Assembly: GCA_050175015.1 (NCBI GenBank)
Contig: JBFXJJ010000006.1
Span: 1-64,000 of the forward strand
Direction: 5' to 3'
DNA: 64,000 nt
Source of the DNA: Alphaproteobacteria bacterium
GTDB lineage: Bacteria; Pseudomonadota; Alphaproteobacteria; JBFXJJ01
The translations under genes were made by a program, and so were the position numbers. Of this stretch, positions 1 to 53,075 are shown in pieces. The stretch's first letter is position 1; every line of letters begins with the position of its first letter. The notes beneath the pieces were generated by a model. The model saw only the letters and a list, made by a program, of their open reading frames with translations. It was not told the origin of the DNA and searched no databases.

Positions 1-1645
1 TCTTGGCATCGTCTCTGGCATAGCCAACCAGACCGCCAACCGCAGAGCCGCTGCCGTTAACACTGGAAACCGAAAAACTGTCCGAAATCCCTGAGCCGCT
101 GTATAAATAACCTACTAAACCGCCAACATTGCTGCCGCCGTTTACCGTTCCCATAGCGTAACTCGAACTTAATGTCGAGGTGCCATTAACATAGCCTTCC
201 AAACCTCCAACATTAGAATTACCAGTTACTGTTCCTGTGGCGTAACAGGAGGAAACAGAACTTTCACTGTGAGAATACCCAACCAAACCGCCAACATTGT
301 TCTTCGCAGATACGGAAGACGAAGAATAACTATCAGTTATTTTCGATTGAGATCCAACAACTCCAACTAACCCTCCAACATTGTTGCTACCACCTACAAC
401 ATTACCTGTAGAATAGCTGTTCGCGATAGTTGAAGCCTGCGCTACACTAGATACTAATCCTGCTACAGTATCTCCAACAGCAGTAACATTCACACTAGAA
501 GAACTGTTGCTGATTGTTGATTTGCCATCAAGAATAGCAACAAGACCACCTGCAATACTATCTGTATAAGATGAGATAAGCTGCGGCGATGTAACAGTTC
601 CCGATGAAGAACAATTATATATGGACGTTTTAGCATGAGCATAAGCCGCTAAACTTCCAACAACCCTGCCGCTGCTTATATTAGCATTTTTTAATTTTAC
701 ATTTTGGATGCTTGCGCCAATCGTAATATTAAAAAGCCCCGCCCAACAGCCATAACAATTTACGGTTAAATTTTTAATACTATAATTTTTACCATCAAGA
801 AAACCGGTAAAGCCATTAGAAAAACTCGTTCCTATAGGAGTAAAATTAACTCCGCTGCAATCAATATCATTTGCTAGTTGATAATTACCTGAAAGGTTGT
901 TTCCCATATTTTGTAACTGAGTGCAATTAGAAATCATATTCCAAGACATAGTGCTGCAAAAAGCAGGATATGAAACACTTTCTCTAATGCACCACAAACT
1001 ATTAGCAAAATCCCAGCCCTCAAAAGTGGCTTGCTTTTTCATTTCTGCGGTGGTTTTGCCCTCTCCTAAGGCCGAGGTCGTCTGTCCAGATGTTTCGGTG
1101 TCCCAATAACTATGAACAGCTGTAGAATTTGTTGCGCTTCCGACTAATCCCCCCACAGAAAAACTATCTCCTGAAATTGATGCCGAAGAATAACAATTAG
1201 TGATTACTGAATTATTTGCTGTGTTAGCAAAGGCTGCTGCATTTAAGGCTGCACTTATGTTTCCAGAAATATAGCAATTTGAAATATTGGTGTTCAAGAT
1301 TGAAGACGCTATGCTAGCCGCACCGTTTAGCCCTTTAACCGTAATATTGATAAAGGCTATATTTTTTATAGTAGCACCGTCTGCGACATTAAAAAGTCCA
1401 GTTTGCCAATGTATCATATTGTTTATGGTTAAATTAATGATTCTGTGATTTCTACCATCAAGAATACCCGTAAATGGATTAAATTCATCACCTATAGATA
1501 TATAGCCTGCCCCATTGTTCCAACTTGCTGAAGCGCTGCAATCAATATCATTTGCCAGATAATAATTGCCAGCTAGATTACTACTCATAGCTTGCAGTCC
1601 TGCGCAGGTTGTAATGGCTGTTTGAGCATAACCGTATCTAGGATA
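1..1645 (-). CDS. GLUG-motif (VGGLVG repeat) surface protein 1; leaderless body, runs off the window start; missed by the ORF track
   Basis: Manual translation from 1645 gives YPRYGYAQTAITTCAGLQAMSSNLAGNYYLANDIDCSASASWNNGAG...YWDTETSGQTTSALGEGKTTAEMKKQATFEGWDF..., then a second module (ISNCTQLQNMGNNLSGNYQLANDIDCS). The window start reads VGGLVGYARDDAK in the same frame. In-frame TGA at 1651-1649; first in-frame ATG (1588) lies inside the mature domain. Confidence 0.9.
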
Positions 1646-1646
1646 T
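1628..1646. repeat. Switch 1 gene-proximal inverted repeat / putative recombination core site ATAACC-GTATCTA-GGATAT
   Basis: 18/19 identical to the reverse complement of 2182-2200; imperfect dyad around a 7-bp spacer. Confidence 0.9.
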
Positions 1647-1688
1647 AGTCATATTTCTATCATACTACTTTATAAAAATATACTTATA

Positions 1689-1924
1689 AATCATATAGTT
1701 ATAAAAAAAAGCTGTTTGTTAAAAAGAGATAACAATTTAAAAAAATATAAAAATGATGCCTATTAGTTACCCGTACAAACAATATAATAATTAAAATAAT
1801 TATTATTTATCAATATGTTATATGATAAATTTAAAATAATAACAAGAAAATACAATATAATTTAGTTACCCATAAGCTACCCAATTATTTTAACCTAAAA
1901 AAACTATTTATTTTCAATACATTA
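1689..1924. promoter_or_regulatory. Array of 3 IHF-like sites (1689-1701, 1808-1820, 1912-1924) alternating with 2 GGGTARC-like box pairs (1755-1772, 1865-1882)
   Basis: TATCAATATGTTA matches the IHF consensus WATCAANNNNTTR exactly; the other two sites have 1 mismatch; spacing is conserved with switch 2. Confidence 0.7.
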
Positions 1925-2050
1925 TTTAGACTAACAAACGTCAATTTTGCAAGATGATACCAACAACAAAAATGTTAACAAAAAGAAACATTTGCGACAG
2001 CTGCAAATATGGTTTTTTATTTCTTATGATATTAAATAAAAAAAATACGC

Positions 2051-2079
2051 TTGCTTACAGCTTAAAACTGTTGCAAACT
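2051..2079 (+). promoter_or_regulatory. Candidate sigma70 promoter inside switch 1 (TTGCTT-N17-CAAACT)
   Basis: Starts 78 nt before the leader ATG; the switch 2 candidate starts 79 nt before its ATG. Confidence 0.4.
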
Positions 2080-2128
2080 GTAGATAAAAAAAGATTACTA
2101 AAAATATTTTTTACGAAAGGGCAAGAAA

Positions 2129-2212
2129 ATGTTTAATAGAATTAAATTATCATACTTGCTGCTTTTGATATTAACCTTATCATATCCTAGATACAGTTAT
2201 CTTTTATTGTAA
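2129..2212 (+). CDS. Signal-peptide exon of switch 1 (MFNRIKLSYLLLLILTLSYPRYSYLLL*)
   Basis: RBS block GAAAGGGCAAGA at 2115-2126; basic n-region plus hydrophobic h-region; crosses the repeat in the YPRY frame. Confidence 0.85.
   Translation: MFNRIKLSYLLLLILTLSYPRYSYLLL
2182..2200. repeat. Switch 1 distal inverted repeat ATATCC-TAGATAC-AGTTAT
   Basis: Partner of 1628-1646. Confidence 0.9.
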
Positions 2213-2295: not shown

Positions 2296-3408
2296 TTAAT
2301 AATTAGGAAATTTAAACGCCTTTCCTTCATAATTTTTAACAACAAGATATTTCTCTTCTTTTTTTTCAACATTGTCTGGCGATATTACAACTTTGCCCCC
2401 TCCTGGAGTATCAATAGCAAAAGTTGGAACAGCATAACCTGAGGTATGCCCTCTTAAAGAATTTATTATCTCTAGCCCCTTCTCTATTTTACATCTAAAG
2501 GGATAAGAACCTTTTACGGGATCACAAGCAAACAAATAATATGGTTTAACTCTGCACTTTAAAAGCTTATGCATTAGTTCTTTTATAACCTCGGTATCGT
2601 CATTAACCCCCTTCAAAAGCACCGTCTGACTTCCCATAACATTGCCATTGTCAGCTAGCTTGTCACAAGCTTCAACAACCTCAGGAACTAGTTCTAAATA
2701 ATGGCTAAAATGAAGACTGAAAAACAAAGGATTATATTTCTTAAAAATTGCCAGCAAATTGTTTGTTATTCTCATTGGCATTGTGATAACAGCTCTGGTG
2801 CCAATTCTAATAATCTCAACGTGCTTAATGGCTCTAATCCTGCTAAGAATCCAATCCAAATCATCATCTGGCAAAACTAAAGGGTCTCCACCTGAAACCA
2901 AAACATCTCTAATTTCTTGATGTTCTGAGATATAATCTAAAGCTTTCTGCCAGCTTTCTCGATTAGACATATGACGCTGCCCAACAGATCTTGATCTTGT
3001 ACAATAACGACAATACGCGCCGCAATTACTCGTAACCAGAAAAAGAACTCTATCAGGATATTTATGTACAAGCCCTGGTGTCTTCATATCATTTTCTTCG
3101 CCCAAAGGGTCATCTAGCTCTCCCTCAGACAATATATTCTCATAACTATGAGGAATATGGAGTTTTTGTAAAACAGCATTTTCTCCGCCATTGTACATAA
3201 CAGCCGCCATAAAAGGTGTCACACCAATAGGAAGCCTTTTATTTTGAGCAAAATTTGAGGCATCATTATCACTAATTGCAAAAATACGCTTAAAATCAGA
3301 AAAACTTTTAATCATATTGGCAAGCTGCCATTGCCAATCAGACCATTGAGCATCATCTATTCTTTGATAGAACGTATTTTTAAATAAATTTATCTTGTCA
3401 GAAATCAT
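2296..3408 (-). CDS. kamA: KamA-family radical SAM protein (lysine 2,3-aminomutase-like)
   Basis: WSDWQWQL, HKYPDRVL, CGAYCRYCTR, SGGDPL, PGGGK motifs. Confidence 0.85.
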   Translation of the reverse strand: MISDKINLFKNTFYQRIDDAQWSDWQWQLANMIKSFSDFKRIFAISDNDASNFAQNKRLPIGVTPFMAAVMYNGGENAVLQKLHIPHSYENILSEGELDDPLGEENDMKTPGLVHKYPDRVLFLVTSNCGAYCRYCTRSRSVGQRHMSNRESWQKALDYISEHQEIRDVLVSGGDPLVLPDDDLDWILSRIRAIKHVEIIRIGTRAVITMPMRITNNLLAIFKKYNPLFFSLHFSHYLELVPEVVEACDKLADNGNVMGSQTVLLKGVNDDTEVIKELMHKLLKCRVKPYYLFACDPVKGSYPFRCKIEKGLEIINSLRGHTSGYAVPTFAIDTPGGGKVVISPDNVEKKEEKYLVVKNYEGKAFKFPNY

Positions 3409-43820: not shown

Positions 43821-44117
43821 ATGGAAAACAATACTATTACTAGAGTTGATATCAGTGAAGCAATATATCACGAAGTAGGTCTTTCCCGTAAAGATACTAT
43901 GGATTTATTGGAAATGATTATTGATGAAATTTCTTCAGCCCTATCAAAAGGTGATGAGGTAAAGATTTCTTCATTTGGAACGTTTGCTGTGCGCCAAAAG
44001 AAACAAAGAATTGGCAGAAACCCAAAAACCAAACAAGAAGTTCCTATTACTCCAAGGAAAGTATTGTCTTTTAGAGCTTCTCAGCTTTTAAAAAAACGTA
44101 TCAACGATAATAAATAA
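43821..44117 (+). CDS. ihfA: Integration host factor alpha subunit
   Basis: VKISSFGTF, GRNPKT; conserved synteny. Confidence 0.93.
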   Translation: MENNTITRVDISEAIYHEVGLSRKDTMDLLEMIIDEISSALSKGDEVKISSFGTFAVRQKKQRIGRNPKTKQEVPITPRKVLSFRASQLLKKRINDNK

Positions 44118-49035: not shown

Positions 49036-49120
49036 GCAAAAAAATCCTTATATAATGCTTTCATAAGTTTAAACAACTTATACTTTGTTTCTATTAATGG
49101 GAAAAATCAAGTTAAAAGCT

Positions 49121-50515
49121 ATGAAAATGACTTTTTATAATAAAATACTACCAATTTTTTTGGTCTCCGTTTTAATCAGCTCTTGTTCTGGCAATGCTAA
49201 AGTTGCAAGAACAGTTGCTAATCAGCAAACTTTTAGAGGTATTGTCGTTTCAGATGAACCACAAGCTACCATTGTAGGGCAAAATATACTAGCCAATGGC
49301 GGAAGTGCTGGCGATGCAATGGCAGCAATGGGACTTGCGATGTCAGTTACAATGCCTTCCCGTGTAGGTTTAGATGGCAGTGGTTTTTGCCAACTCTATA
49401 ACCCTAAAGAAAAGAATGTCCAAACGCTTGATTTTATTACAAACAATTTAAGTGATTCAACTGTCATCCCTGCTCTTCCAAGAGCCTTATTTGCTATTTA
49501 TGCTAAAGCTGGTAATCTGCGTTGGCCTGAAATTGTTTTTCCTGCAGAAAGCTTAGCTAAGTTTGATATGAAAATTTCAAGAGCTTTTGTTAAAGATTTA
49601 GAAACGTTATATCAAGCAAAAAGCGATACTAAAGACATCTATCTAGCTAGATTAATCAGCCATTTCTCATCAAAAGATGGAGAGCTTTTAAAAGAAGGTA
49701 TGCCTTTTTCTCAAATTGAACTAGCTACAGTTTTAGCTGGAATTAGAAATGCCGGAGCAGGAGATTTTTATAATGGCAATTTTGCTAAAAGATATATTGA
49801 ACAAATTTCCAATTTCCATTCAGGTATTACAGCCGAAAGTTTAGCCAATTATACGCCTATATGGCTGGCATCAAACGGCTTTAAGCTTGGAAATGAAATG
49901 GCTTATTTTCCATCTGACAAATTAACATCTGATTTTGGAAGCACTATTTGGAATCAACTAGTCGGTGATAATAACGACACTTCAAATAATATTTTAAACC
50001 TTTTGAACAACAAAAATGAAGATGTCGCATCTAAAACCAACTATGCTGCCAGTGCAATAGCTGTTGATGAAAGCGGAATGGCTATCGCCTGCACCTTTTC
50101 TATGGGGAAACTCTTTGGCGAACAAAAAATATTGCCAACCCTTGGCATAGTAAAAGCTTCAAAAGCCACTGATTTATTATCAGATATAAATCAATTAGCA
50201 AAAGCATCATCAATGATAATCATCAATGAGAATGTCAACGAATTTCGTTTTATTGGATCAGCCACAGGAGAATCTGCCGTTAGTGATTTACTGAAAACTT
50301 CTTTTTACGCAAACTATCAAAAGAAGAATTTAGAAACAGCGCTTCAGGAAACAGCTGATAACGATACAAGCACTATAAATCTTGTATCATGCAAAGAAGG
50401 CTTGCCTCCCTTCCCTGATACCTGTGAAGCTTTAAACGATATTCGAGCCGATGGCTACTTTAGATTTTCTGGAGTCCCTAAAAAAGGGAAAAGACCAGCT
50501 CCTAGAGAACGGTAA
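49121..50515 (+). CDS. Gamma-glutamyltransferase-like lipoprotein (divergent)
   Basis: Lipobox ISSC; GGSAGDA, GAGDFYNG, AVDESG. Confidence 0.75.
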   Translation: MKMTFYNKILPIFLVSVLISSCSGNAKVARTVANQQTFRGIVVSDEPQATIVGQNILANGGSAGDAMAAMGLAMSVTMPSRVGLDGSGFCQLYNPKEKNVQTLDFITNNLSDSTVIPALPRALFAIYAKAGNLRWPEIVFPAESLAKFDMKISRAFVKDLETLYQAKSDTKDIYLARLISHFSSKDGELLKEGMPFSQIELATVLAGIRNAGAGDFYNGNFAKRYIEQISNFHSGITAESLANYTPIWLASNGFKLGNEMAYFPSDKLTSDFGSTIWNQLVGDNNDTSNNILNLLNNKNEDVASKTNYAASAIAVDESGMAIACTFSMGKLFGEQKILPTLGIVKASKATDLLSDINQLAKASSMIIINENVNEFRFIGSATGESAVSDLLKTSFYANYQKKNLETALQETADNDTSTINLVSCKEGLPPFPDTCEALNDIRADGYFRFSGVPKKGKRPAPRER

Positions 50516-50705: not shown

Positions 50706-50777
50706 CTAACTATAACAAGGATAAGCTATAGTTATAATCGAAAACAGCAGACTTAGAAATATATTTTTATTAAACAT
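50706..50777 (-). CDS. Signal-peptide exon of switch 2 (MFNKNIFLSLLFSIITIAYPCYS*)
   Basis: RBS block GAAAGGGCAAGA (50791-50780) is identical to switch 1; 18 codons precede YPCY in the repeat. Confidence 0.85.
   Translation of the reverse strand: MFNKNIFLSLLFSIITIAYPCYS
50707..50723. repeat. Switch 2 distal inverted repeat TAACT-ATAACAA-GGATA
   Basis: 16/17 identical to the reverse complement of 51258-51274. Confidence 0.88.
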
Positions 50778-50827
50778 AGTCTTGCCCTTTCTAAAATAAA
50801 TCCTAATTTTATTTTCTTATTGTCTCT

Positions 50828-50856
50828 ATTCTGCCTTATTTTAAACGGCGTTGCAA
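50828..50856 (-). promoter_or_regulatory. Candidate sigma70 promoter inside switch 2 (TTGCAA-N17-CAGAAT)
   Basis: Starts 79 nt before the leader ATG. Confidence 0.5.
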
Positions 50857-50980
50857 CAATTAAAAAAATGTCATTAAGCATCGTTTAGAGTATTTTTATC
50901 AAAATTAATTTAAAAGTTACATTTTTTTAACATTTAATTGAACTAATTTTTATGCAAAAAAATATCACCAACAGCTAATA

Positions 50981-51215
50981 TAACACCTTGATTATATTAT
51001 ATTTTATTTCAATATTATTTTAGGGTAACATATGGGTAGCAATAATATGCTAATTTTATAGAATATCTTAAAACATTATTAATATAACTTATTGAATTAA
51101 CATACTTTTTATATAAATACTTTTATTTAATGGGTAACATATAGGTAGCTTTATATAAAAAATATATAATAAAAATCTAAAAAATAAAAAATGTAATATT
51201 TATAACATATTGATT
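50981..51215. promoter_or_regulatory. Array of 3 IHF-like sites (50981-50993, 51085-51097, 51203-51215) alternating with 2 GGGTARC-like box pairs (51023-51040, 51132-51149)
   Basis: Two perfect and one 1-mismatch WATCAANNNNTTR on the minus strand; GGGTAAC-ATAT-RGGTAGC twice. Confidence 0.7.
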
Positions 51216-51257
51216 TTAAATATCTTTTTTATATCTTTTTTTCAATACATTTGAATA

Positions 51258-51274
51258 TATCCTTGTTATGGTTA
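51258..51274. repeat. Switch 2 gene-proximal inverted repeat TATCC-TTGTTAT-GGTTA
   Basis: Partner of 50707-50723. Confidence 0.88.
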
Positions 51275-53075
51275 TAGTCAAACAGCCATCACAACCTGCT
51301 CAGAATTACAGGCGATAAACAACAACTTATCAGGTAGTTACTATCTTGCCAACGATATTGATTGCAGTGCGACATCAAGCTGGAACAGCGGTGCTGGTTT
51401 CGTACCTATCGGAAATGCATCGACCCCATTTGCAGGAACTTTTGATGGTAAGAGTTTAACCATAAAAGGACTATACATAAGCAGAGCGGGAATAAACCAA
51501 ATTGGCTTATTTGGGGAAACTAATAGTGCTACAATAAAAGATGTTACGTTGGATAGTATCAACATCACAGGGGGAAGCCGAACCGGCGGTTTAGTTGGAA
51601 GGACTGGAGGTACAACCTCCATAAAAAACTGTGGCACAAAAGGTTATGTTTATGGGCGTGCCGATTACTGCTGTATCGGAGGACTTGTTGGAGGTGCTTA
51701 CGGCAATTTTACTATTGCTAATAGTTATTCTCACGCAGCTGTCAACACTAATGTTTCTTGGTCTGGTGGGCTGGTTGGAGATCACTATACAGGAAAGATA
51801 ATTAATAGCTATGCCACGGGTTCTGTCGTTGGTTGTTCCGCAAGATGCGGGGGACTATCTGGACAACTTGTGAATAGTGGCTCAATAATAAATAGTTTTT
51901 CAACAGGTTCGCTATCAGGCTGTTCATCTTATTGTGGCGGTTTGTTTGGAATATATTATTCTGGGACATCTTCTGGCAATTATTGGGATTATCAAACATC
52001 AGGAATGGCCACCAGTGCAGGAGGAACAGGCAAAACTACAGCCCAAATGCAAACACAAAGCACTTTTGCAGGCTGGGATTTTGAAAATGATTGGTGTATG
52101 CCGGAAGGTGATTATCCACGGTTAAAATTTGAAGATGCTTGTTCCTTGCCAACTTGTACAGGTTGTGCGGTTTTAAGCGGCAGAGAATGTGTTGCTGGCG
52201 ACAGTTGTTCAGGCGAACACCCAAATTGTGTTGTAACTGATAATGATGGCATTTGTGAATGTTCAGCATCTAGCTGTAATGCGGGACGCAGCTGCTCTAC
52301 TGCGGGAATATGCTCTGACTGTGATAATTCTGAGGGGTGTGGCTCTTGTACTTGTGGAACCTCACAAAAGCCGACAGGAACAGGCGCCTGTATAAATGAC
52401 AGCTCGTGCTGTGTTGGTGAATGCAATATGGCAACTGGTGCTAATTTTTGCAGTTACAGTGATGACTTATGCTCCTCAGGAATAGCGTGCAACCGTTCAA
52501 CATTATCTTGCTGTGCTTCCTCCCTTCCTTATTGGCGAAGCAGCGACTGCAAACCTTGTGCCGCCACTAGTGGTTTGTCTGGAACGTGCCAAACTAAGGG
52601 CATGATGTGCAACTCGAATTATGATTGCGTAAGCTGTTTGGCTAATATGCAATGCACCTGTGATGATGGCTTTGTTTCTGATGGTGCTGGCGGCTGTATC
52701 GAGCCTTTATGCTACACCGACAGTGAATGCGGAACCGATAAATGTATCAATGCTGGAGACTACGACGCTTTCTGCTCAAACTGCAGTTCTATCAATAAGG
52801 TCTGGGTTTCAGGATCTTGCGAAAGCTGTCCAAGTGGTTCGACGTATCATAATGGTATTTGTTTATGCTCTGATGGCAAAATGTGGAATTCTGCAAGCAA
52901 TACCTGCTCTAAAAAAAGCGTAATTTCAAGCCACGGGGTTATTGATACCAAGAGTAAGGCAACCGCCATAACACCAGAGAGCCGCTATGACCGCATTAAG
53001 CGCAAAATGAATCGCATCACGAACAGCGCCTATGCAGGAGTAGCTGATAAAGAAGAATTGGAAGAATTAGAATAA
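51258..53075 (+). CDS. GLUG-motif plus cysteine-rich surface protein 2; leaderless body
   Basis: Frame is open 97 codons upstream of the tracked TTG: YPCYGYSQTAITTCSELQAINNNLSGSYYLANDIDCSATSSWNSGAG...; in-frame TGA at 51252; GGLVG repeats followed by a Cys-rich region. Confidence 0.9.
   Translation, partial: YPCYGYSQTAITTCSELQAINNNLSGSYYLANDIDCSATSSWNSGAGFVPIGNASTPFAGTFDGKSLTIKGLYISRAGINQIGLFGETNSATIKDVTLDSINITGGSRTGGLVGRTGGTTSIKNCGTKGYVYGRADYCCIGGLVGGAYGNFTIANSYSHAAVNTNVSWSGGLVGDHYTGKIINSYATGSVVGCSARCGGLSGQLVNSGSIINSFSTGSLSGCSSYCGGLFGIYYSGTSSGNYWDYQTSGMATSAGGTGKTTAQMQTQSTFAGWDFENDWCMPEGDYPRLKFEDACSLPTCTGCAVLSGRECVAGDSCSGEHPNCVVTDNDGICECSASSCNAGRSCSTAGICSDCDNSEGCGSCTCGTSQKPTGTGACINDSSCCVGECNMATGANFCSYSDDLCSSGIACNRSTLSCCASSLPYWRSSDCKPCAATSGLSGTCQTKGMMCNSNYDCVSCLANMQCTCDDGFVSDGAGGCIEPLCYTDSECGTDKCINAGDYDAFCSNCSSINKVWVSGSCESCPSGSTYHNGICLCSDGKMWNSASNTCSKKSVISSHGVIDTKSKATAITPESRYDRIKRKMNRITNSAYAGVADKEELEELE

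Follow-up and report, generated by a model that had tools for sequence, protein, structure and literature searches.

In Mycoplasma penetrans the 38 mpl (P35) genes form a scattered family of surface proteins in which invertible promoters lie before single genes (PMC2268961). An arrangement with some resemblance to this one is described here from the first 64 kb of contig C6 (JBFXJJ010000006.1, positions 1 to 64,000; hereafter the window), part of an alphaproteobacterial genome of 2.53 Mb (49 contigs, 35% G+C, 99.4% complete). Two elements in the window, referred to as Switch 1 and Switch 2, each lie ahead of a gene for a GLUG surface protein which has no start codon of its own. The system belongs to a known general kind of phase-variation switch, of which it is a new and unusually tidy form, and it is probably a working one, in which inversion by a tyrosine recombinase rebuilds a secreted protein and which has been assembled in the OFF state. 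As in the mpl family, each gene would be switched ON or OFF by its own small element, and tyrosine recombinases have been proposed to act there in trans (PMC2268961). However, whereas the mpl element is described as a promoter, the element found here also carries the start codon and signal peptide, so that the crossover falls in coding sequence.

A second likeness is to the vsa genes of Mycoplasma pulmonis and to mba / UU172 of Ureaplasma, in which a 5' coding cassette is fused by inversion at a site in the coding region (PMC2268961, PMC3047005). Here too the recombination site is located in coding sequence, and inversion would fuse a promoter-like block, a start and a signal peptide to a start-less gene. 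What is not seen is a cassette shared by several silent genes: all 13 loci identified in this genome have a cassette and a spacer of their own, and whereas vsa and mba toggle between the genes of one locus, the private cassette here would give a plain ON/OFF choice. There are other differences from vsa and mba: no more than 22 codons come from the cassette, the proteins are not lipoproteins, and LptD/F/G mark the organism as diderm. The present system joins two mycoplasma designs, the private cassette per gene and the in-frame signal-peptide fusion, in a diderm bacterium.

The short invertible element and the tyrosine recombinases also recall fimS of Escherichia coli (FimB/FimE, with IHF and Lrp), in which IHF sites bend the DNA; fimS and IHF are mentioned together in the abstract of PMC9096935. 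Nevertheless, fimS holds a promoter only, is a single locus and is served by adjacent recombinases that have no arm-binding domain, in all of which it differs from the present system. Mpi of Bacteroides fragilis is a serine recombinase, a class that is missing from the present genome, and the switches of Mpi and of Clostridioides difficile RecV are promoter or 5'-untranslated region elements and not coding fusions. The likeness to these two lies in one unlinked recombinase that is thought to serve many elements (for Bacteroides, PMC2268961). Neither is this a shufflon of the R64 Rci / sfx type, as each locus is a single two-site element and the spacers differ between loci. Invertons overlapping a gene on one side now number in the hundreds (Chanin et al., bioRxiv 10.1101/2023.03.11.532203; Milman et al., PMC9881135). 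A literature search found neither a per-gene invertible signal-peptide cassette nor an arm-binding integrase employed as a phase-variation invertase, although the supplementary inverton lists of those two studies may hold similar cases; two further features, a different overlap at each locus and an attP-like interior that points to an arm-binding integrase, were likewise not found described in it.

Switch 1 is bounded by two inverted 19-mers, one at 1628-1646 (ATAACCGTATCTAGGATAT on the + strand) and one at 2182-2200, which is the reverse complement of the first with one mismatch. An initial annotation, made from the letters of the window, had singled out these repeats as matching at 18/19, and both their positions and the degree of match are correct; the arms are 554 bp apart from centre to centre. 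When up to 3 mismatches were allowed, the 19-mer was matched 3 times in the window, where 0.01 matches were to be expected (in 100 shuffles the largest count was 1 and none reached 3), the third match, at 51257-51275, being the proximal site of Switch 2. The proximal site of Switch 1 (1628..1646) is composed of an outer half-site (1628-1633), a 7-bp spacer (1634-1640) and an inner half-site (1641-1646), and the distal site (2182..2200) of an inner half-site (2182-2187), a spacer (2188-2194) and an outer half-site (2195-2200, AGTTAT). Together they delimit an invertible segment of 561 bp including both spacers (1634..2194), assembled OFF.

The movable part of the signal peptide lies at the distal end. 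The + strand reading frame at 2129 was said in the initial annotation to be an exon that ends after 27 residues; the length is right but the word is not, as this is a bacterial mini-open reading frame (mini-ORF). It occupies 2129-2212, encodes MFNRIKLSYLLLLILTLSYPRYSYLLL and then stops, with GAAAGGGCAAGAAA as its upstream sequence. With the ribosome-binding block GAAAGGG at 2115-2121 it makes up the cassette (2115..2212, + strand), of which residues 1-22 are the movable signal-peptide part. On the other side of the element, the target is a GLUG / Peptidase_M26_N surface-protein gene on the minus strand (2..1645) which has neither start codon nor signal peptide and runs off the start of the contig. 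Its frame, read on the minus strand from 1648 to the contig start as ...IEI*LYPRYGYAQTAITTCAGLQ..., opens immediately after the TGA at 1649-1651; no start codon precedes QTAITTC, and the mature part begins with the Q codon at 1624-1622. As the first ATG is internal, an ORF finder calls the gene as 2..1588. Its product matches Peptidase_M26_N (1.8e-21) and Glug (1.8e-19), and exceeds the Pfam gathering cut-offs for both (PF05342 and PF07581, in that order) with 77 bits (cut-off 27.7) and 69.1 bits (cut-off 20.5).

Inversion was carried out by script between the spacers 1634-1640 and 2188-2194, and in silico it does rebuild an in-frame, putatively secreted protein as had been predicted: the first 22 codons of the cassette run into the G-Y-A-Q-T-A... 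of the gene, which places a leader of 25 residues before QTAITTC. The recombination site doubles as code for the c-region of the signal peptide, a further point that had been correctly noticed, since 1628..1646 on the gene strand encodes Y-P-R-Y-G-Y. Signal peptides were judged by heuristics (charge, hydrophobicity and the -3/-1 residues), and by these the Switch 1 leader is the plausible signal peptidase I substrate that it had been proposed to be, having 2 positive charges in its first 8 residues, a core with a Kyte-Doolittle mean of 2.45 (best 10 residues), Pro at -6, Gly at -3 and Ala at -1. A lipoprotein reading was dropped for want of a lipobox Cys at +1. The same result was obtained wherever a GLUG gene stands behind a switch: the in-silico fusion is in frame at 12/12 such loci, with a leader of 25 residues (27 in one) whose charge ranges from +1 to +3 and whose hydrophobic core scores 2.45-3.12; position -3 is always Gly, position -1 is Ala or Ser, and all 12 fusions qualify in the heuristic check as Sec / signal peptidase I substrates.

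The cleavage point before QTAITTC is supported independently by distant GLUG homologues that lie behind ordinary signal peptides. A set of 21 such loci was taken from contigs of other genomes, mostly those of candidate-phyla (CPR-type) bacteria and archaea. In four of them (L049, L055, L061 and L063) the same domain starts at most 3 residues from the end of an ordinary in-frame Ala-x-Ala signal peptide, L063 reading ...PQPALA and then QTAITTC. In two others (L053 and L062) the GLUG domain begins within about 20 residues of such a leader, and in the remaining 15 the domain is internal or the frame leaves the locus. The switch architecture itself is absent from all 21.

Pattern and protein searches of the whole genome turned up this anatomy 13 times: twice in the window, once each on contigs C4, C10, C11, C13, C17, C21 and C27, and twice each on C5 and C23. 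Twelve of these switches precede GLUG paralogues, and at those 12 loci the arms match at 15-18 of 19 positions and the elements span 543-584 bp. All 13 cassettes face away from the gene, that is, all were assembled OFF. The second switch of the window (50706-51275) has its proximal site at 51257..51275 (spacer 51263-51269) and an invertible segment of 558 bp at 50712..51269; its cassette, a mini-ORF of 23 residues on the minus strand (50706..50777), includes the distal site (50706-50724, spacer 50712-50718). Here the target is complete, a start-less GLUG gene on the + strand (51258..53075) which encodes 598 mature residues with 53 cysteines and the conserved C-terminal tail of the family. It has no membrane segment, most of its cysteines are in the C-terminal half, and it scores above the gathering cut-off for Glug (33.4 bits) and below that for M26_N (25.1 bits). 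A protein so rich in cysteine needs to be exported, and the complete paralogues carry 48-53 cysteines each.

The locus on C21 stands apart from the other twelve. This thirteenth switch (C21:16218-16794; L064:6219-6795) retains matched spacers, both GGGTARC pairs (described below) and the cassette ORF, but its GLUG gene is gone: the frame that opens behind the proximal site meets a stop after about 35 codons, and an inosine-uridine nucleoside hydrolase gene starts some 190 bp further on. The element might now be switching transcription of that gene.

The start-less genes evolve under coding constraint. The open frames behind the switches span 537-909 amino acids, and the ratio of nonsynonymous to synonymous substitution rates (dN/dS) between the C10 and C17 GLUG genes is 0.36 across 639 codons. 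Frames which are kept open and constrained must be expressed at times, and inversion is the only visible route by which this could happen. At these two loci the elements (C10:87008-87573 and C17:43751-44315) share 93.7% identity, while the genes that they precede are mosaic (dS of 0.2-1.4 in 100-codon windows, 73% amino-acid identity), which hints at gene conversion between the two. Six complete GLUG proteins (from 52100-53075 in the window and from the C-termini at C4, C5a, C5b, C13 and C23b) have in common a Cys-rich C-terminal half with 43-49 Cys and a conserved basic tail, ...ESRYDRIKRKMNRITNSAYAG..., that has no Pfam match. Contigs C6 (positions 1-60 of the window), C11 and C27 all end within the same GLUG repeat (...SGSAVGGLVGYARDDAK); the paralogues share identical stretches which the assembler did not resolve, and several members of the family are consequently incomplete.

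The strongest evidence for a switch is the covariation of the two arms. The sites have the form TATAWCC, 7-bp spacer, GGWTATA, i.e., two inverted half-sites around an overlap identical in both partners, as in the core sites of tyrosine recombinases. The 7-bp spacer is identical in both arms at every one of the 13 loci, and no two loci have the same spacer: over the 78 pairs of loci, 11 differ by one base, 28 by two, 25 by three, 12 by four and 2 by five. This matching is found in elements which have diverged to a median identity of 56%. Even in C10 and C17, the most recent duplicates, one spacer base differs, and it has been changed in both arms of each. The mismatches between arms sit in the half-sites and never in the spacers. 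That of Switch 1 is C at 1633 against A at 2195 (GGT and AGT), in the outer half-site on each side; it had been expected to stay with the flank, and the genome as a whole bears this out, the outer base being G at the proximal and A at the distal site in 7 of the 13 loci. With a switch OFF, no obvious coding constraint acts on either copy of the site. Tyrosine recombinases need identity only in the overlap region where strands are swapped, and matched spacers with mismatched half-sites are what would be expected of such an enzyme.

With its own spacer, each element should recombine only with its own partner site. The heterospecific lox and FRT sites of genetic engineering behave in this way, having the same arms and different overlaps and recombining only with their own kind; compared with these, the 13 sites described here would be a natural set, their orthogonality being suggested by the spacer sequences.

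The interior of the elements is as ordered as their ends. In an alignment of all 13, the blocks follow one another from the distal site inward as signal-peptide codons, ATG with the ribosome-binding block, a promoter-like pair, about 100 variable bases and a series of boxes, such that in the innermost part TAACATATTGAT, present three times, alternates with GGGTARC-N4-RGGTARC, present twice. The promoter-like pair (TTGCNN, 17 nt, CANANT) ends 42-54 nt before the ATG at 11/13 loci. In Switch 1 it reads TTGCTT, 17 nt, CAAACT on the + strand (2051..2079), ends 49 nt before the ATG and is weak, and in Switch 2 it is on the minus strand (TTGCAA at 50851-50856, 17 nt, CAGAAT at 50828-50833); its assignment as a promoter is a weak one. 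A generic terminator scan found nothing in the switches, and there was no Rfam match in 1400-2500 at E values up to 1.

The complement of TAACATATTGAT fits WATCAANNNNTTR, which we take to be the IHF consensus. Strict matches to it in the 13 elements number 18 on one strand and 0 on the other, where shuffles gave 1.1 (max 5 of 500), and the boxes recur at fixed distances from the proximal core (-290, -185 and -67). The central box of Switch 1 is at 1809..1820 on the minus strand and reads TAACATATTGAT on the gene strand. Three genes of the HU/IHF family are encoded in the genome, one of them in the window (43839-44105). Between the boxes lie the pairs that resemble arm-type sites, which in Switch 1 are both on the minus strand (pair 1, GGGTAGC-N4-GGGTAAC, at 1865..1882; pair 2, GGGTAAC-N4-AGGCATC, at 1755..1772) and in Switch 2 are at 51023-51040 and 51132-51149.

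A linked recombinase was ruled out for the window, in which none is encoded, and so was a serine invertase, as the whole genome has 17 Phage_integrase (tyrosine recombinase) hits and 0 Resolvase (serine recombinase) hits. A weight matrix was built from the 26 GGGTARC pairs and the genome was scanned with it at a threshold well below the weakest training site. In 2.5 Mb this gave 27 sites: the 26 used for training and one more, 172 bp upstream of the start of an integrase gene at C1:263738-265012. A third half-site follows this pair, and a second pair with 5-nt spacing is found directly before the start codon. Of the 159 heptamers in the genome (0.063 per kb), four are in the 5' flank of the C1 integrase gene, while within 600 bp of 14 other recombinase genes there are none at 12 and one each at two. 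The pair pattern occurs at 13 places in this genome (0 for the reversed pattern as a control) and at none in 400 other genomes of the class, and its 14 matches on metagenome contigs are all tandem repeats or unrelated or chance occurrences.

The C1 integrase (424 amino acids) has arm DNA-binding, core-binding and catalytic domains (Arm-DNA-bind_3 4e-13, Phage_integrase 5.8e-19), its catalytic part aligns to XerH 5jjv, and no tRNA gene is present within 12 kb around it. Its paralogue on C4, also of 424 amino acids and with an arm domain, is 57% identical and belongs to an island which has direct-repeat pairs of its own (GGAACC-N5-GGAACC) beside both ends, one of them just before the start codon of the integrase. 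By analogy with this layout the GGGTARC pairs would be the arm-type sites of the C1 enzyme, and we tentatively suggest that this enzyme, acting in trans, may well be the invertase of all 13 elements. The island (C4:195264-205020, about 9.6 kb) is inserted in tRNA-Val, which is intact at one end of the island and represented at the other by a 51-nt copy (90%) of its 3' end.

In its three domains the candidate is like the heterobivalent integrases of Lambda and P4-type elements, and the interior of the switches is correspondingly like attP, with direct-repeat pairs that appear 11 bp apart, away from the core sites and in alternation with IHF-like boxes. Unlike Lambda and P4, the partner sites here are inverted on one molecule, so that the outcome would be inversion; the arm sites would lie between the cores; and no mobile element is involved. 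A fuller proposal, which we put forward with some reserve and hold as somewhat short of likely, is that a phage or island integrase has been domesticated as a genome-wide invertase, that the switches are miniature attP-like intasomes and that 13 overlap sequences embedded in signal-peptide codons keep them independent of one another.

The main rival reading, which is possible although we regard it as doubtful, is that the switch is real and the enzyme a different one, a simple tyrosine recombinase (Xer-like, or the tandem pair on C39), with the GGGTARC pairs bound by a shared regulator of the C1 integrase gene, either a transcription factor or a nucleoid protein. Simple recombinases are encoded at C1:262591, C3:34082, C39 (two) and C40, and the pairs lie upstream of the promoter-like block, where activators bind. 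There is also precedent, as a survey of tyrosine recombinases places the enzymes of known phase-variation switches among the simple ones, which have no arm-binding domain, and associates the arm-binding ones with phages and integrative and conjugative elements (ICEs), as whose integrases they are best known (PMC8138268). However, in the entire 2.5 Mb the motif is found nowhere else but at an arm-domain integrase gene, the paralogous island integrase is laid out in the same way, with repeats of its own at each att end, and the simple recombinase genes have no heptamers near them, save one near C40.

For the C1 integrase as invertase, the sequence of events would be as follows. The element, of about 550 bp, carries a promoter-like block, a ribosome-binding site, the ATG and the n- and h-regions of a Sec signal peptide, with the recombination site inside the codons of the c-region (Y-P-x-Y-G-Y). 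The integrase would bind the two GGGTARC pairs of each element while IHF or HU bends the DNA at the three phased boxes, and strand exchange within the spacers would flip the element. The cassette would thereby be fused in frame to the start-less GLUG gene, which would be transcribed and translated, and signal peptidase I would cleave the exported product before QTAITTC. With the switch OFF, nothing but an orphan peptide of 27 residues could be made. What the sequence itself shows is the anatomy, the reading frames, the covariation between arms, the distribution of the motif and the constraint on the coding frames; that inversion occurs, with its rate and bias, and likewise the enzyme, the promoter and the export, is what we infer from it.

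Several results weigh against this interpretation and should be considered with it. An ON junction was found on none of the contigs of the assembly, nor was there any flipped copy, and a relative carrying the switch, in which orientations could be compared, was not found among the genomes searched. The promoter-like block scores 6 of 12 in Switch 1, and ten of the other copies reach 8-9 of 12; a generic sigma-70 scan of the two window switches was not above shuffles (9 against 6.0+-2.3 and 9 against 8.4+-2.8) and flagged nothing upstream of either cassette ATG. No recombinase gene adjoins a switch at any of the 13 loci, and the connection of the C1 integrase to the elements is one of motif co-occurrence. 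Lastly, as 11 pairs of loci have spacers only one base apart, the insulation between loci may be leaky. As regards relatives, the closest 40 genomes, all of which are of the same class only, gave a single weak GLUG match (E 1e-9) and a switch in none. The stretch itself is present in one sequencing run, which is labelled as a landfill metagenome and may be its source.

The uniform OFF orientation, the missing ON junction and the loss of the GLUG gene at the C21 locus would also be accounted for if the elements were frozen relics which no longer invert, leaving the GLUG family permanently silent. This we think improbable: the spacers are still perfectly matched at all 13 loci, including the paired change made since the C10/C17 duplication, and twelve long frames remain open with the constraint given above. 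An all-OFF assembly is in any case compatible with active switching. If about one of the 12 genes were ON per cell, each locus would be OFF in most cells and the consensus would be OFF everywhere; an OFF-biased recombinase would give the same picture.

Inverted repeats can recombine via RecA in some antigenic-variation systems, and general homologous recombination between the arms would dispense with a dedicated recombinase. We consider this very improbable, as arms which match at only 15-18 of 19 positions are too short for efficient RecA exchange, the symmetry of half-site, 7-bp spacer and half-site is that of tyrosine-recombinase cores, and identity is limited to the spacer and inner bases where an even decay might otherwise be seen. 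Finally, a chance repeat or assembly artefact with a meaningless mini-ORF can practically be discounted, for although weak inverted repeats are common in AT-rich intergenic DNA (the first 8 kb contain 83 pairs), the count expected is 0.01, the anatomy recurs at 13 independent loci with in-frame fusions in 12/12, and a repeat of 19 bp would hardly be long enough to cause a misassembly 13 times over, always in the same direction.

If the switches do operate as proposed, this uncultured bacterium has a repertoire of 12 Cys-rich surface proteins, each of which could be turned on alone, and such a surface repertoire points to strong pressure from hosts, grazers or phages. The use of an arm-binding integrase as an invertase would also widen the known roles of an enzyme class that the survey cited above ties to mobile elements (PMC8138268). 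Should the private spacers insulate the loci from one another, they would constitute a natural orthogonal set of recombination sites for one enzyme, useful for multi-bit DNA memory. There is in addition a lesson for annotation, in that gene finders miss or truncate such genes, which have no start in the reference orientation (here they are called from an internal ATG or TTG), and the same trap may hide similar families elsewhere.

Some smaller observations concern the surroundings of the switches. The OFF-state cassettes of both window switches point into convergent neighbours, at 2296-3408 and at 49085-50515 (a lysine-2,3-aminomutase-like radical SAM gene and a gamma-glutamyltranspeptidase gene), so that transcription in the OFF state could run antisense to those genes. 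About 60 bp outside the distal site are conserved at C10, C11, C13, C17 and C27, forming a block with ...CAACAAGACTCG... and ...AAAAAACACTATTTTACA and with short hairpin-forming repeats, which could serve to terminate the OFF-state transcript or, alternatively, to bias switching towards one direction. A third copy of the C10 core site (C10:80113-80131; 18 identical bases, same spacer) is found at a distance of 7 kb from the switch, immediately ahead of the ATG of a gene on the + strand and inverted relative to the proximal site; a 7.4-kb inversion through it is conceivable, and the resulting fusion would be unproductive. In the neighbourhood of the C21 switch, L064:10518-14689 contains a further integrase of 354 amino acids which has two copies, 70-80% identical, on C3 and C8, and which has an ankyrin-repeat protein and a relaxase of the MobA/VirD2 type as its neighbours. 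These features suggest a mobile element present in several copies and, possibly, a life in association with a host.

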